64,000 nt of DNA from Escherichia phage JEP8. This document shows positions 8,837-63,714 of the stretch, in pieces. The stretch is taken from sequence record MT764208.1. The stretch is one strand, 5' to 3'. The stretch's first letter is position 1. The number at the start of each line of letters is the position of its first letter. Position numbers and translations under genes: made by a program. The notes below the pieces were generated by a model. It did no database searches. It had not been told where the DNA came from and saw nothing but the letters and a program-made list of their open reading frames with translations.

Positions 8837-8992
8837 TTAAATTTCTTCTACAGTAAAGTCTTCAATGTTGTTGTGCTCGGCGAACGTTGCCAGACCAGCA
8901 TTCCATGCATCATCCTCAGAGAAGAATACACCGTAACGTTCATATCCTTTAGCGCCTTCAAATTTAACCATTAATTTGTGAGTATGTTTCAT
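8837..8992 (-). CDS. hypothetical protein (51 aa)
   Basis: Trimmed to ATG after AGGAG; the ORF-track extension runs through the promoter. Confidence 0.45.
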   Translation of the reverse strand: MKHTHKLMVKFEGAKGYERYGVFFSEDDAWNAGLATFAEHNNIEDFTVEEI

Positions 8993-9022
8993 TTTGATTC
9001 TCCTTCGTTGTCTTGATGAGTT

Positions 9023-9052
9023 TAGTATAGGGGATCGCCGATCCCCTGTCAA
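9023..9052 (-). promoter_or_regulatory. sigma70-like early promoter (-35 GTTGACA, -10 TATACT); spacer is the palindrome GGGGATCGGCGATCCCC with two GATC sites
   Basis: Exact 17 nt spacing; near-identical cassettes at about 49.5 kb and 59.2 kb. Confidence 0.5.
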
Positions 9053-9061
9053 CAACTATTT

Positions 9062-9274
9062 TTAATTTTTACCCGCTCGTGCATTAATACGCATTTTCTG
9101 CATAGCCATGATCTGGCTTACTGCTTCTTCTTTACGTTTTTGCGTGATAACGTGACCAGATTCCGCAAACTCTCCCGCAACTTCTTCTACAATCTCGCGA
9201 ACTTGAGAACGTCCAAAGATGCGGTTTCCTTCGTAGCTCATAAATTCAGTCACTACTTGCTCAATAGATTTCAT
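9062..9274 (-). CDS. hypothetical protein (70 aa)
   Basis: Trimmed to ATG after AGGAGA. Confidence 0.5.
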   Translation of the reverse strand: MKSIEQVVTEFMSYEGNRIFGRSQVREIVEEVAGEFAESGHVITQKRKEEAVSQIMAMQKMRINARAGKN

Positions 9275-9303
9275 GTGATTCTCCTTTCGTTTGGTATGGG
9301 AGT

Positions 9304-9332
9304 ATAATACTACTCCCATTTCTTTACGTCAA
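9304..9332 (-). promoter_or_regulatory. sigma70-like early promoter (-35 GTTGACG, -10 TATTAT inside GGGAGTA..TACTCCC palindrome)
   Basis: 17 nt spacer. Confidence 0.45.
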
Positions 9333-9335
9333 CAA

Positions 9336-9497
9336 CTATTTTAAATTATTTTCGACCTTCACCCATTCCGCGTATTCTTGCGCGGCTACTTTCGGATTTA
9401 AGCCGTCTTCGTACATTGCATCAAGTAATTCTTTGTCGGTGGGCTTATACCCTAGATAAGCCTCCACCTGATTTTTCCAAATTTTATACCAGTTCAT
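9336..9497 (-). CDS. hypothetical protein (53 aa)
   Basis: Trimmed to ATG after GGTGA. Confidence 0.4.
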   Translation of the reverse strand: MNWYKIWKNQVEAYLGYKPTDKELLDAMYEDGLNPKVAAQEYAEWVKVENNLK

Positions 9498-12895: not shown

Positions 12896-13888
12896 TTAGT
12901 AATGGCTAAACCCTTCGGTCACATCTTCAACCACATAGTAACGATGACAGCGCATTTTGGCATTCGCATAATCTTTCGGGATACTTACAACGTGACGCGG
13001 ATCAACTTTACATTTAATGATTCGGCCTCGTCCACCGCCATAGTGCGGAATATAGTGTTTCGCTGCAACGTGGAGGCCATTAGAGCAAGTGCGATCATCA
13101 TCCGGGTCCACGTCTTTACGCTTCATTTTAACCGTGCGACCTGGGCTATTATCAAACGTATGCGTAAAGAAATCTTTATAATCAACATCAACACGTTTCC
13201 ATGCATAGAAACAACCATCTTCCACGATCTCAATGTCGTTGTGCTCTAAGAAGTCAAACAGACGATCTACGGCCTTACGGCTAGGGTTTTTCTTGCACTT
13301 CTCAAAGAAGTTCAGATAGTGCGTATATGGCTTATTCTCTTTAATCGACTCCACAACTCGACGAGTCAGATTATTATCAAGAACAATATTATGATAATAC
13401 ACAATACCATTTTCGATACGGAAAGCGCCGTGATAATATACTTCAACCGCTTTCTTAATGTCAATCAGCGTAATAGCTTTGATGAAATCATTATGTTTAA
13501 TCGCTTCCAGTGCTTCATTAAAGTTAACATGCGACGGATCAGCAGTATAAACAATGTCACCACATGTAATAGTAATAAACTTAGTTGAGGCTATTGCTAC
13601 GATTTTTGAGGAAGTAGTCACGGGCTTTTTTGCGCGTTCACCGCCTTTTCCTTTACTGGTTTTACGGCGTGCTTTACGTTTTTCTAGTGCCTTGCGACCT
13701 TCCGCTACTGCGTCTTTCTGAATCAGTAATACACGGGAGGCAGTACGACGAGATACCCCAAATGCTGCCGCAAGTGCTTCGCGGGTAGTAAACTTACCTT
13801 CGCCCCACTGTTTAGCCAGTTTGATTTGTTTTTCAGAATCCAGGCATTGAACGTTACGGTCAGAGACGGTGATTTTTGCTTTAGTCAT
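12896..13888 (-). CDS. rIIB: rIIB protein
   Basis: C-terminal blocks PSRKAVDRLFDFL..DIEI.EDG.FYAWK, TFDN.PG..VKM, CS.GLHV, HPR.VVSIP.DY.DAKMR, YYVVEDVTE match recalled T4 rIIB. Confidence 0.85.
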   Translation of the reverse strand: MTKAKITVSDRNVQCLDSEKQIKLAKQWGEGKFTTREALAAAFGVSRRTASRVLLIQKDAVAEGRKALEKRKARRKTSKGKGGERAKKPVTTSSKIVAIASTKFITITCGDIVYTADPSHVNFNEALEAIKHNDFIKAITLIDIKKAVEVYYHGAFRIENGIVYYHNIVLDNNLTRRVVESIKENKPYTHYLNFFEKCKKNPSRKAVDRLFDFLEHNDIEIVEDGCFYAWKRVDVDYKDFFTHTFDNSPGRTVKMKRKDVDPDDDRTCSNGLHVAAKHYIPHYGGGRGRIIKCKVDPRHVVSIPKDYANAKMRCHRYYVVEDVTEGFSHY

Positions 13889-22930: not shown

Positions 22931-23685
22931 TATAAACCTACCTTCGCTTTCATCAATTCAATCCACGACGCATCAATCGGAAGCCCGTATTTCACGCGTT
23001 CTTTTTGTGCTGGCGTTAAGTTCTCATACTTAGAAAGAGATTCAATCAAAACGCTGGTATATTTTAGCACGATTTCGGTATTGTTTGCAATAGCCTTAAG
23101 TTTTTCTTCTTTCTTGTTGATTTCGCTAAGGGCTTGCTTGAGATCTGCAATTTTCTGATAACGTTCTTCCATACGGAAGAGAGTATTTTTAATCGCTCGC
23201 TCGGCTGCCTCTGCTTTCTCCGGTTCGTTGTGCTTTTTATGGCGCTCGATTGCTAATTTCTTTTCTTCGATTGCCATTTCCTGATTTTTGATGCGATTCT
23301 CGTTAAGTTCGATCCACTCGATGTACTTCGCACGTAGGGCAATTTCATCATCAGAAAGTTTACCGTTAGTTCCTAGTTCCTGGATCTCTTTAAGAGATTC
23401 GATAGTGTGATTGCCACGGAAAGAATTGTATTTCAGTTTAACCGGAATTACATTGCCATCAACATATCCCAGATTGCAATCAATGCGCTCTAAGGAGAGT
23501 CCATCATCACCTTCACCGAAAGCCTCACCGGAATAGGCGCAATGAGTCTGACGGTAAATGTTACGCACAGTGACTAAGCTCATAGAGAAGTCTTTGTTGC
23601 GACGTGAAGCACCAGCCATGATAGAGTTCAGCCGGAAAACAACCAGCGCCAATTCTTCGTTAGATTTAAAAGCAAACAGTTTCAT
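22930..23685 (-). CDS. hypothetical protein (251 aa), C-terminal coiled coil; positional counterpart of T4 srd (not sequence-verified)
   Basis: ORF track; Shine-Dalgarno present; heptad-rich charged C-terminal half. Confidence 0.5.
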   Translation of the reverse strand: MKLFAFKSNEELALVVFRLNSIMAGASRRNKDFSMSLVTVRNIYRQTHCAYSGEAFGEGDDGLSLERIDCNLGYVDGNVIPVKLKYNSFRGNHTIESLKEIQELGTNGKLSDDEIALRAKYIEWIELNENRIKNQEMAIEEKKLAIERHKKHNEPEKAEAAERAIKNTLFRMEERYQKIADLKQALSEINKKEEKLKAIANNTEIVLKYTSVLIESLSKYENLTPAQKERVKYGLPIDASWIELMKAKVGL

Positions 23686-23713
23686 AATTGATTCTCCTTA
23701 GTTGGTATGTGTG

Positions 23714-23743
23714 TATTATTGTCTATCTGGTTTGTGCTGTCAA
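23714..23743 (-). promoter_or_regulatory. sigma70-like early promoter (-35 TTGACA, -10 ATAATA-like)
   Basis: TGTGTATTAT -10 region class. Confidence 0.4.
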
Positions 23744-23746
23744 CAC

Positions 23747-24250
23747 TTAAATTAAAGAAAATTTGTAAATCTCTATCAGATCGCCATTACACGCGTAAAC
23801 TTCCTCGATCTCATCAAGGATCATGGTCGTCCCTGTCTTGTATATGCACTCGCGCTCATCTGCCAACATAGCATACAAAGACAGTCGAGTAGTCGGATTG
23901 TCATACTCTTTAGACACCACTCGGTCAATAGCATGTTCGTAATAATTCATGCAAGGCTTGGTAGGTTTTATTGCAATAATCTTTCCTGTTGCATAAACAT
24001 CGGTTGCAAAGTCCTCTGCTGTTGATTGCAGTGGCGTAAAGCTCATAGGACGCTCTACAACGAAAGAATCGCCTACAATTAAGGTATCCAGCTTACGGCC
24101 TTCTCTTTTGCTCACACCGCGATACAAGGCTTCATGATGCACTAACCGCTCAGTCTTTTCAATCAATCCATTAAGGATCGACATATCGATATTTTCTTTA
24201 GAGTTCATCACCTCATCAATGATGTTAAGTTCTTCTGGTGTAAATTGCAT
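23747..24250 (-). CDS. putative ADP-ribosyltransferase (ModA/ModB/Alt-like), tentative
   Basis: Ordered YRG ... SFT ... ERE triad resembling the R-S-E ART motif; position after gp56 as in T4 mod genes. Confidence 0.4.
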   Translation of the reverse strand: MQFTPEELNIIDEVMNSKENIDMSILNGLIEKTERLVHHEALYRGVSKREGRKLDTLIVGDSFVVERPMSFTPLQSTAEDFATDVYATGKIIAIKPTKPCMNYYEHAIDRVVSKEYDNPTTRLSLYAMLADERECIYKTGTTMILDEIEEVYACNGDLIEIYKFSLI

Positions 24251-24259
24251 AATAAAAAA

Positions 24260-24283
24260 GCCTCCAATCTTTCGACGGGAGGC
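24260..24283 (-). other. RNA hairpin GCCTCC..GGGAGGC whose 3-prime arm contains the Shine-Dalgarno of the downstream ORF, followed by T-run
   Basis: 6 bp stem; sits between the promoter -10 and the ATG at 24250. Confidence 0.4.
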
Positions 24284-24312
24284 ATAATAAAACCATGATA
24301 GAGTAGTGTCAA
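24284..24312 (-). promoter_or_regulatory. sigma70-like early promoter (-35 TTGACA, -10 TATTAT)
   Basis: 17 nt spacer. Confidence 0.45.
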
Positions 24313-24319
24313 CTAATTT

Positions 24320-24838
24320 TTAGTAGCCGCGTTCTTGACGGGCGAAGTTTTCAGCATTTTTCAGATAGTACAGAATAAAGAGTTCTTGAGCGTCAATACC
24401 CAGCGGGATCATCTTTGACAGAATGAAGTGGATCGCGTCCACAAATTCAAATTTCACTTCAAGCTGATCTTCTGGTGACAGTTCAGAGAATTTACGCGCT
24501 CGCGCTTCCCCGTGGTTCTTTTTCCACATTTTCCAGATTGCACTTGCATCTTTACCATTGGACATTCCACCCAGCGATGTGTAAAGCTCTCGTGTTTCGT
24601 CTGCGATAGCGTCATCCATCCGTTGCATCCAATCCAGCATTTCACCGCAAGTCTCTAGCTTAGTTGGATTTGGGACCCAATCAAATTTTTCGGATAATGC
24701 AACCTGTAAACCAGTTTGCATTTCGAGCATCACCTGAAACGGATCTTTACCTTCTGCAATCGCGTGATGATATGCGGCGATAGCCGCGTCAATATTTTTT
24801 TCGTTAACCAGACCAGCACAAGAATTAAATTCTGACAT
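24320..24838 (-). CDS. 56: dCTPase gp56
   Basis: DPLQVML.MQ, PDKLET.G, FRELLTSLG.MS, ASA.WKKW, MSPEDQLE.KFE.VD.FHF, YYLKN.ENFARQ.RGY match recalled T4 gp56. Confidence 0.85.
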   Translation of the reverse strand: MSEFNSCAGLVNEKNIDAAIAAYHHAIAEGKDPFQVMLEMQTGLQVALSEKFDWVPNPTKLETCGEMLDWMQRMDDAIADETRELYTSLGGMSNGKDASAIWKMWKKNHGEARARKFSELSPEDQLEVKFEFVDAIHFILSKMIPLGIDAQELFILYYLKNAENFARQERGY

Positions 24839-24852
24839 ATTCACCTCATTAA

Positions 24853-37265: not shown

Positions 37266-37952
37266 TTAGTCGGTGTAGCTGGAGTCAAGGTCACACGCGA
37301 TCATATAAGATACGGTTTCACTTGCCAGCCATACAGCCTTACGGCGAGTGAAGCTCAGTTTGTAATCACCGAAGTCAGTAGCAACCAGTTTCATGTTGTC
37401 TTTACGAATAAAGAAATGGAAGTCGGCGGTTCCGGTATATTCGCCCATGTCAAGACAAAACATCTCATTAGGATTGTTTTTGTCAATCTCTTCCCAGCCT
37501 TTGATCATCAGACGACCATCAATCGGTAGAAATTCAAGGCGGTCCACTTTAAGCTGATTGCTCATTTTCATAAGCTGTTTCAGATCGTCGTTGCTCAATT
37601 CGTAATCTACATCGCTTGCAGGTGGAGTAACTCGGCCTTTCGGTGATACGATAGCGGCAGCACTAGCACCAGGATAGTTAATTTTCAGTCGATCGTTAGA
37701 CACACGAATGTTTCCAGTGCGGTTATCAACCGTAATATCTGCTTCATCGCCTACCAGATTCAGAATACCCAAGAAAGAGTTAAGATCGTAAATCCCAATT
37801 TCGTGTTCCAGTTCTTGATTCAGAGTCGCTTCACCATATACAACGTTTGTCATGTTTTTGGTGATCAGCACATTTCCTTTTTTCAGGATGATACCTGGGT
37901 TAATAGCGGAAAAGTTTTTCAGGGTAGCAATGGTTTCTTTAGTCAGTTTCAT
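37266..37952 (-). CDS. 45: sliding clamp gp45 (228 aa)
   Basis: Same length as T4 gp45; N-terminus MKLTKETIATLKNF resembles MKLSKDTTALLKNF; IYDLN.FLGIL.LV. Confidence 0.85.
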   Translation of the reverse strand: MKLTKETIATLKNFSAINPGIILKKGNVLITKNMTNVVYGEATLNQELEHEIGIYDLNSFLGILNLVGDEADITVDNRTGNIRVSNDRLKINYPGASAAAIVSPKGRVTPPASDVDYELSNDDLKQLMKMSNQLKVDRLEFLPIDGRLMIKGWEEIDKNNPNEMFCLDMGEYTGTADFHFFIRKDNMKLVATDFGDYKLSFTRRKAVWLASETVSYMIACDLDSSYTD

Positions 37953-58489: not shown

Positions 58490-58559
58490 AATATAATCCT
58501 CACATCGTTCATTTGATGCGGTCATTATATGATAACCGCATTTTCATGTCAACAGTTTT

Positions 58560-63685: not shown

Positions 63686-63714
63686 ATTATGCTATACCCT
63701 ATTCCGGTTGTCAA
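63686..63714 (-). promoter_or_regulatory. sigma70-like early promoter (-35 TTGACA, -10 CATAAT)
   Basis: 17 nt spacer. Confidence 0.45.

Follow-up and report, generated by a model that had tools for sequence, protein, structure and literature searches.

In bacteriophage T4, the genes e, soc, 49 and I-TevI have their ribosome-binding site (RBS) sequestered in long transcripts, and a proximal promoter inside the structure yields a translatable RNA (PMC3014915). Phages RB49 and phi1 carry the so-called PeSL cassettes, about 51 of them in RB49, each made of a strong sigma-70 promoter and a stem-loop that serves as terminator or attenuator for upstream transcription (Arbiol et al., 2010, PMC2839356; the cassettes of RB49 and phi1 are also covered by Comeau et al., 2014, PMC4122927). 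Activity was assayed for PeSL211/210, 193/192 and 206/205 only, and PeSLs mediate indels and mini-circle formation in RB49 and phi1 (PMC2839356). Here we describe a locus that resembles both arrangements, found in 64,000 nucleotides of Escherichia phage JEP8 (sequence record MT764208.1; this whole stretch is called the window below). The 69-nt spacer upstream of its modB gene, which encodes a putative ADP-ribosyltransferase (ART), holds a promoter, a hairpin and a U-run, and the hairpin pairs the downstream end of the promoter with the Shine-Dalgarno sequence (SD) of modB. We consider it probable that termination and RBS occlusion of upstream-initiated RNA tie ModB translation to the gene's own early promoter.

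A hairpin between the modB promoter and start codon

Over the 2-kb segment around the locus, identity to Escherichia phage RB49 and about 55 other Krischvirus genomes is 99%; the window is that of an RB49-like Krischvirus, and the four genes under the segment are annotated srd, modB, 56 and 61 in the matching genomes. All genes of the region lie on the minus strand. The RB49 counterpart of the open reading frame (ORF) at 23747-24250 is modB (RB49p014, RB49 8917-9420; an RB49 coordinate is the window coordinate minus 14830). The elements of the spacer and the two genes that it separates are as follows.

24320 to 24844, minus strand: gene 56 (dCTPase/NTP pyrophosphohydrolase), upstream of and co-directional with modB; its transcripts run into the hairpin
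24307 to 24312, minus strand: -35 hexamer TTGACA of the predicted modB early promoter (promoter, -35 and -10 are annotated in GEC-3S)
24284 to 24289, minus strand: -10 hexamer TATTAT, with 17 nt between it and the -35, likewise annotated in GEC-3S
24278 to 24283, minus strand: 5' arm of the hairpin, GCCUCC, at promoter positions -6 to -1 (the discriminator)
24276 to 24277, minus strand: predicted transcription start, in the hairpin loop (C24277, the 7th nucleotide after the -10, or G24276, the 8th)
24267 to 24276, minus strand: inner 3-bp stem of the computed fold, GUC (24276-24274) with GAU (24269-24267), and a GAAA tetraloop
24260 to 24265, minus strand: 3' arm of the hairpin, GGAGGC, which holds the sole modB SD, GGAGG (24265-24261), 10 nt from the ATG
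24254 to 24259, minus strand: U6 tract, the predicted terminator tail, which starts at the base after the stem and is followed by ATT and the ATG
23747 to 24250, minus strand: gene of the ModB-type mono-ADP-ribosyltransferase (167 aa, stop included in the coordinates; ATG 24250-24248, stop 23749-23747)

The original prediction, made from the sequence of the window, had placed the GGAGG of this gene in the 3' arm of a 6-bp GC hairpin (24260-24283) between the -10 and the ATG, followed by a T-run, and this is what we find. The hairpin exceeds chance expectation, with a minimum free energy (MFE) of -15.0 kcal/mol (z = -3.35) that is matched by 2 of 200 dinucleotide shuffles. Its apparent 12-nt loop is itself structured, giving a stem of 6+3 bp, which TransTerm called "10 bp". 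As in an intrinsic terminator, the GC-rich stem is directly followed by the U-tract; our local terminator scan, with its loop limit of 8, missed the hairpin. The promoter scores 11/12 against the sigma-70 consensus, is preceded by "aaaaattag" and has GGAGG and ATG downstream. Promoter matches scoring 11-12/12 are all on the coding strand, and a promoter scan detected no second promoter upstream within the spacer. A search of Rfam at E<=1 over 23600-24500 returned two chance-level matches and none to a described leader or cis-regulatory family.

Already in 2006, a promoter and a terminator had been predicted at exactly these bases. The RB49 early promoter Pe:9496 (9446-9496) corresponds to window 24276-24326, and the TransTerm terminator "modB<--56" (confidence 100, RB49 9430-9453) to window 24260-24283 (Nolan et al., 2006, PMC1524935, both in the supplements). 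In the Ec_Makalu_003 record, a "terminator" feature is annotated here with the RBS inside it.

The first base of the 5' arm directly adjoins the -10 hexamer, which makes this arm the discriminator of the promoter and not transcribed leader. RNA polymerase with sigma-70 starts about 7-8 nt after the -10. Among 19 strong window promoters with a downstream SD and ATG, the 6th position after the -10 is C in 15, the 7th is A in 14 and the 8th is T in 16. Nolan et al. (2006, PMC1524935) state that mapped 5' ends bear out the RB49 promoter consensus, which has C at -3 to -1, and the 3' end of their promoter model falls at window 24276. For T4, where the modB start is predicted at 13150/13149, the circNC primer for modA-modB RNA ends at GAAGUAUACGG, which would fit a start 8 nt downstream of the -10. 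The initiation region at the strong window promoters is strikingly uniform (NNNCNC/AUC(G/A)AA). A different geometry is found at window 37260-37200 (-35 at 37288), where a stem-loop, GGGGAGUA-uua-UACUCCCC followed by U5, begins at about the predicted +1; contrary to what is expected at modB, the transcript of this promoter would itself hold the entire terminator-like hairpin (-16.4 kcal/mol when folded from the own start).

Because the predicted start lies in the loop and the 5' arm at -6 to -1, mRNA from the modB promoter should be unable to form the hairpin, and because that mRNA lacks the 5' arm, the hairpin should be formable in transcripts initiated upstream (genes 56 and 61) only. The computed folds are consistent with this. 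In read-through RNA the probability that the SD is unpaired is 0.00, in contexts of both 141 and 201 nt, against 0.40-0.43 in RNA from the predicted own start, for which the MFE is -2.3, the centroid has no structure and z is about +1.3 to +1.5.

From the observed sequence elements and RNA fold, together with the conservation, covariation and specificity described below, we infer a start position, a termination efficiency, a read-through RNA and a translational block that would work together as follows. RNAs initiated upstream, in genes 61/56, would contain the whole hairpin, and most of them would terminate at the U-run, just short of the modB AUG. Those that read through would carry modB with a fully paired SD and would go untranslated. 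RNAs from the modB promoter would start in the loop, without the 5' arm, and being unstructured would be translated. The net effect would be to tie ModB synthesis to its own immediate-early promoter and to insulate it from upstream transcription. The biological purpose may be to limit a toxic enzyme to the immediate-early window. The original prediction, that the hairpin may control a potentially toxic enzyme, is probably right in spirit as regards limiting expression; the attenuator or RBS gate in the gene's own leader that it proposed finds no support, the 5' arm lying at -6 to -1. With the mechanism so corrected, the hairpin would filter out upstream-initiated RNA instead of gating its own mRNA, and opening it under the native promoter would be expected to have little or no effect on translation.

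Conservation of the pairing in modB-type loci

Krischvirus isolate genomes are at least 95% identical, too alike to inform, and outside Krischvirus a blastn search with the spacer matched the 3' end of gene 56 only. Scans of IMG/VR and metagenomes gave one divergent locus; the informative divergent loci are the contigs encoding the homologues P0003, P0031 and P0033. The layout is kept by metagenomic homologues with 75, 74, 63, 49 and 40% protein identity. In 6/6 RB49-type variants the -10 adjoins the 5' arm (TATTAT/GCCUCC, TATGAT/GCCCCC, TATAAT/GCCCUC and TATACT/GCCACC), and behind each of the matching 3' arms (GGAGGC, GGGGGC, GGGGGC and GGUGGC) come a U-run and the AUG. The fourth stem pair is U-A, C-G or A-U across homologues 75% to 40% identical. 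In the RB49-type alignment (six sequences), to which the pair count was restricted, 96.3% of cells are paired, and 3/500 shuffles reach the observed score. At one locus (L007) a C-to-A change shuts the internal loop to give a continuous 10-bp stem.

The hairpin stays with mod when the neighbouring gene differs, as with the Mom-like gene of L018 and the reverse-oriented homing endonuclease gene of phage JSE. L018 (72-746; Logan SRR8048117) comes from an uncultured relative with a Mod homologue 40% identical and has the Mom-like gene (PF25680) upstream instead of 56, its stop codon falling inside the mod promoter spacer. In JSE (L008 524-1560) and, by blastn, G37-3, homology to the window breaks exactly at the modB -35 TTGACA (24312); the JSE insert is a 921-bp reverse-oriented homing endonuclease gene between 56 and modB that overlaps the 3' end of gene 56. 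This break fits PeSL junctions as indel hot spots.

We extended the comparison to 16 modB-type loci, namely the six RB49-type loci and those of T4, RB69, JS98, S16, myPSH1140, PEi26, Q7622, X20, pzk-kv8 and MY02. Thirteen of them were tabulated pair by pair, anchored on the -10, and RB69, MY02 and Q7622 were folded over the same region; a MAFFT alignment of the 13 spacers was out of structural register, the SD shifting relative to the -10. The -10/discriminator pairs with the gene's own SD in 16/16 loci. In all 13 tabulated loci the SD is fully paired, and in five of these the AUG is fully paired too. The hairpin is seen in Krischvirus, Tequatrovirus, Mosigvirus, Dhakavirus, Gelderlandvirus, Karamvirus, Kanagawavirus, Winklervirus and Marfavirus.

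At the ten T4-type promoter-proximal mod genes the hairpins have 10-16 bp (-9.8 to -20 kcal/mol, z -3.1 to -7.4), with the -10 and discriminator pairing with the SD and the SD-AUG spacer, as in T4 (gauAUGAUAGCUUCUGaaguauaCGGAGGCUAUCAUg). With its -10 included, the T4 modB hairpin has 14 bp and -18 kcal/mol; a shorter fragment gave a weak 8-bp hairpin (z = -0.6). T4-type discriminators vary (AGCUUC, GACCUC, CUCU) while staying complementary, and the -10 variants TATGAT, TAGTAT and TATAGT are complemented in the spacer by AUCAU, AUACUA and ACUAU. The frequency of G·U pairs across the modB-type hairpins argues for pairing as sense-strand RNA and not for a DNA palindrome. None of the ten T4-type modB hairpins has a U-run.

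We then compared 32 promoter/start-codon pairs, from the window and from T4 1-50 kb, by the duplex energy of promoter positions -14 to -1 with the translation-initiation region (TIR). They ranked as follows.

Rank 1: T4 modB, promoter-TIR duplex of -15.3 kcal/mol
Rank 2: T4 gene 49, -14.5 kcal/mol (a known case, which serves as positive control)
Rank 3: window modB, -11.6 kcal/mol
Rank 4 onward: all others, -7.8 kcal/mol or weaker

No structure was found at eight control promoter-gene pairs, which were modA of T4, RB69 and JS98 and srd of five phages (z -0.2 to +2.0). The srd promoter of the window was among the controls.

23715 to 23743, minus strand: srd early promoter TTGACA-17-AATAAT, which begins 3 nt past the modB stop and has no hairpin

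In RB69 (L026) and JS98 (L021), modA has its own GTTTAC early-type promoter without a promoter-TIR hairpin. T4 modA shares 4 nt with modB and lacks a separate promoter, the structure being confined to the modB-type gene.

It is possible, and we put it forward tentatively, that the promoter-embedded hairpin is a family-wide regulatory device of modB-type ART genes across T4-like phages, which would restrict translation to own-promoter RNAs; the RB49 lineage may additionally have made it a terminator. The mod hairpin goes unmentioned in two T4 reviews on transcriptional and post-transcriptional control, the primary mod papers being outside the literature covered. The one thing here that may be new is that promoter-TIR pairing is conserved across genera and specific to modB-type genes.

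The encoded ADP-ribosyltransferase and its neighbourhood

The 167-aa ORF on the minus strand contains Y43-R44-G45, S70-F71-T72 and E132-R133-E134, and the YRG, SFT and ERE elements thus stand in the R-S-E order at the coordinates for which the original prediction had reported them. They correspond to the aromatic-R-G motif with the catalytic arginine on strand beta1, the S-x-S/T motif and the E-x-E motif (ARTT loop) of R-S-E enzymes (cholera-toxin-like/C3-VIP2-type). It matches PHROG 832, "RNA polymerase ADP-ribosylase" (E=1e-20), and the Pfam family PF26816 (Mod_ADP_RT) is precomputed on its homologues P0001 (99% identical), P0002 and P0003. With a copy of Pfam-A that lacks PF26816, the ORF gave a sub-threshold match to DUF5507 alone; NCBIfam had no match for the ORF, T4 ModA or T4 ModB, and phmmer with the single ORF sequence found none among PDB sequences. 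The family profile gave a weak match to XopAI alone among PDB sequences (E=0.0097), with the E-x-E segment aligned to "EQEVLFPPGT" of XopAI.

BLASTP aligns 113 aa of the protein with T4 ModB at 33% identity (E=8e-11), pairing LYRGVSK with LYRGISK and RPMSFT with RVDSFT; against T4 ModA (E=2e-6), DERE is aligned to DEQE. A family alignment of 21 sequences shows no variation at R44, S70, F71, E132 or E134. R44/S70/E132/E134 align with R73/S99/E171/E173 of T4 ModB and R72/S96/E163/E165 of ModA, so that S70-F71-T72 stands against S99-F-T and S96-A-S, and E132-R-E134 against E171-Q-E173 and E163-Q-E165, respectively. The R73A variant of T4 ModB is inactive (PMC10468400).

An AlphaFold2 model built from the family alignment (pLDDT 92.1, pTM 0.85) gave 108 Foldseek matches in the PDB at E<=1e-3. 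The 50 matches listed (E from 3e-7, probability 1.00, TM about 0.5-0.6) are all R-S-E ADP-ribosylating toxins, among them Certhrax, VIP2, C3, CDTa, Iota, BECa, HopU1, XopAI and ExoT. Fold, triad, family and synteny are concordant, and the ORF is, as judged from its sequence and model, a ModB-type R-S-E mono-ADP-ribosyltransferase. This bears out the assignment that had been proposed tentatively from the sequence elements. Public records already carry the ART/modB identity, the RB49 gene being annotated as modB.

Roughly 490 phage records have a Mod homologue. Besides such homologues, the Mod family profile picks up very large proteins (1,000-7,000 aa), including P0041, P0052, P0053, P0061, P0062, P0073 and P0110. 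The matches fall in 3-9 separate stretches each, mainly at profile positions ~45-115, and these proteins may be polymorphic or polyvalent toxins with repeated or partial ART-like modules.

The gene order of the window (dda, Y01A(dda.1), srd, mod, 56, 61) matches that of T4 (dda, dda.1, srd, modA, modB ... 56 ... 61) beside srd, which agrees with the proposal that the ORF lies where T4 has modA/modB; this phage has a single mod gene. L017 and L018 have no srd between mod and the Y01A gene. The mechanically called ORF of gene 56 opens at a GTG (24844, 174 aa), and the RB49 annotation starts at an ATG two codons downstream (RB49 10008, window 24838, 172 aa).

The window protein shares with T4 ModA and ModB the family hidden Markov model, the R-S-ExE triad and the genomic slot beside srd, and with T4 ModB the promoter-proximal position and the promoter-TIR hairpin of modB-type genes. 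With 167 aa against 207/200 in T4, it lacks about 30 N-terminal residues of T4 ModA/ModB. Its sequence is nearer to ModB than to ModA, and its target specificity may be ModA-like or ModB-like. ModB ADP-ribosylates and RNAylates ribosomal proteins. Candidate targets are the alpha subunit of RNA polymerase, as for ModA, or S1, EF-Tu and trigger factor, as for ModB; RNAylation is a further candidate activity.

Rival readings and known systems

In the original prediction the hairpin belongs to the 5' leader of modB's own mRNA, as an attenuator or an RBS gate that has to be opened. It does lie between the -10 and the ATG, hold the SD and precede a U-run, and with a hypothetical start at 24283 the SD would be unpaired with a probability of 0.00. 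Such a start, at or before 24283, would however be 0-1 nt from the -10, against about 7 nt for sigma-70; the window promoters favour C six and A seven nucleotides after the -10, and the scan found no second promoter upstream in the spacer. The abutment of -10 and arm in 6/6 RB49-type variants points the same way, as does the T4-type arm, which includes the -10 itself, and we regard an own-leader hairpin as very improbable. A plain intrinsic terminator of gene 56 in a short spacer, whose overlap with the SD would be a by-product of compaction without a translational role, would account for the GC stem and U6, the TransTerm confidence of 100, the terminator annotated in Ec_Makalu_003 and the description of PeSL stem-loops as terminators/attenuators. 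But the hairpin goes with mod and not with gene 56, being kept in JSE and L018, T4-type modB keeps the covarying pairing of SD/AUG with the promoter without a U-run, and in the other PeSLs of the window the SD does not serve as an arm. Since the hairpin tracks mod and the T4-type pairing persists without a U-run, the conserved feature is the pairing to the translation-initiation region. A plain terminator is, in our view, unlikely.

The inverted repeat might also have been selected mainly at the DNA level, as a PeSL recombination substrate (modular shuffling, mini-circles) or as a palindromic repressor operator for the mod promoter. PeSLs do mediate indels and mini-circles in RB49/phi1 (PMC2839356), and homology in JSE and G37-3 breaks exactly at the -35, beside the homing endonuclease insert in JSE. 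Yet the arms vary freely while staying complementary (AGCUUC, GACCUC, CUCU, GCCNCC), and the frequent G·U pairs would become mismatched C·A on the complementary strand or in the DNA duplex. Selection mainly on DNA thus seems improbable, and a protein-operator palindrome in particular was rejected on the G·U-tolerant covariation; a role in recombination and one in RNA are not exclusive. Least credible is that GCCUCC serves the promoter alone, as a discriminator setting the stability of the open complex (DksA/ppGpp sensitivity), and complements the SD by coincidence. GCCUCC does occupy -6 to -1, and other window promoters have AC-rich discriminators, but in six RB49-type and ten T4-type loci compensatory changes preserve its complementarity to the SD. 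A pure discriminator was likewise rejected on the G·U-tolerant covariation.

Several points weigh against the reading that we prefer, in which termination and RBS occlusion of upstream-initiated RNA tie ModB to its own promoter. The modB promoter and its start site are predictions, and promoter-like matches overall are not enriched in the region (59 vs 49.8±7.4 in shuffles). From the own start the SD is only ~40% unpaired in the ensemble. The RB49-type stem is mostly invariant, with both-side changes in 2/9 pairs among the six sequences; covariation within this subtype is modest, and kinship or PeSL-mediated homogenisation could inflate the apparent conservation. Because the T4-type hairpins have no U-run, the terminator and SD-occlusion roles are separable, and either of them may be the one that matters in RB49. 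Finally, ModA has been described as highly toxic (PMC2988021), and that ModA-type genes have no hairpin despite this toxicity weakens the rationale of limiting a toxic enzyme.

For the window itself little changes, since its gene is a known, annotated ModB homologue. The cross-phage result is more useful: the TIR of modB-type genes stays complementary to their own promoter, with covariation, unlike that of neighbouring early genes. If confirmed, this would add an early gene to the T4 e/soc/49/I-TevI set, with promoter choice deciding translatability, and would offer a handle on the control of ModB dose and timing. For annotation pipelines, the locus is a reminder that in T4-like phages a terminator, a promoter and an RBS may rightly be annotated over one another.

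Among the described systems, the modB spacer fits the PeSL type, and by its sequence belongs to the last of the five published subclasses, which differ in the position of the stem-loop relative to the promoter, namely "stem-loop downstream of -10". It has a near-consensus promoter, an AT-rich upstream stretch, a short spacer, a stable stem-loop, an SD and an ATG, and like the PeSLs of RB49/phi1 it comes from the same phage group and joins an AT-rich stretch, a consensus sigma-70 promoter, a GC stem-loop, SD and ATG. Scanning the window, we found many PeSL-type cassettes, all on the coding strand, with stem-loops upstream of the -35, between the boxes, over the -10 or, as at modB, downstream of the -10. 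Every strong TTGAC[AT]-N16-18 -10 match in the window is on the minus strand, mostly in intergenic PeSL cassettes with varied stem-loop positions (examples of their -35 boxes are at 63714, 62472, 61302, 59228, 58552, 55327, 54417, 53182, 50677, 31420, 29290, 23743, 17292, 16924, 9834, 9052 and 8829). Two translation-initiation motifs recur in the window, "GAGGATTATATTATG" and "AAGGAGAATCAA(A)ATG" (e.g., downstream of the -35 boxes at 58552, 54417, 53182, 29290 and 8829). GAGGATTATATTATG holds ATTATA, the reverse complement of the -10 TATAAT; this weak A-U pairing (duplex -5 to -6 kcal/mol) was judged non-significant. Unlike in the other PeSLs of the window, the 3' arm doubles as SD at modB alone, and unlike PeSLs in general, which mostly flank ORFans, the modB cassette precedes a conserved gene of known function.

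The modB hairpin also resembles rho-independent terminators, with its GC-rich 6+3 bp stem, GNRA tetraloop and U6. It differs from the usual ones in lying downstream of and overlapping the promoter of the next gene, and in having that gene's SD as its 3' arm. Similar in design are T4 e, soc, 49 and I-TevI and mobE of Aeh1, where SD and/or AUG are likewise sequestered in upstream-initiated RNA and the proximal promoter lies within the 5' part of the structure. At modB the corresponding geometry, an arm at -6 to -1 and a +1 at 24277/24276, involves a promoter and a start that are both predicted. In those systems a late promoter is the proximal one and expression is delayed, whereas modB has an early sigma-70 promoter and its expression is predicted to be confined to early times. 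To this design the RB49-type modB hairpin adds a U-run, which makes it a predicted terminator as well.

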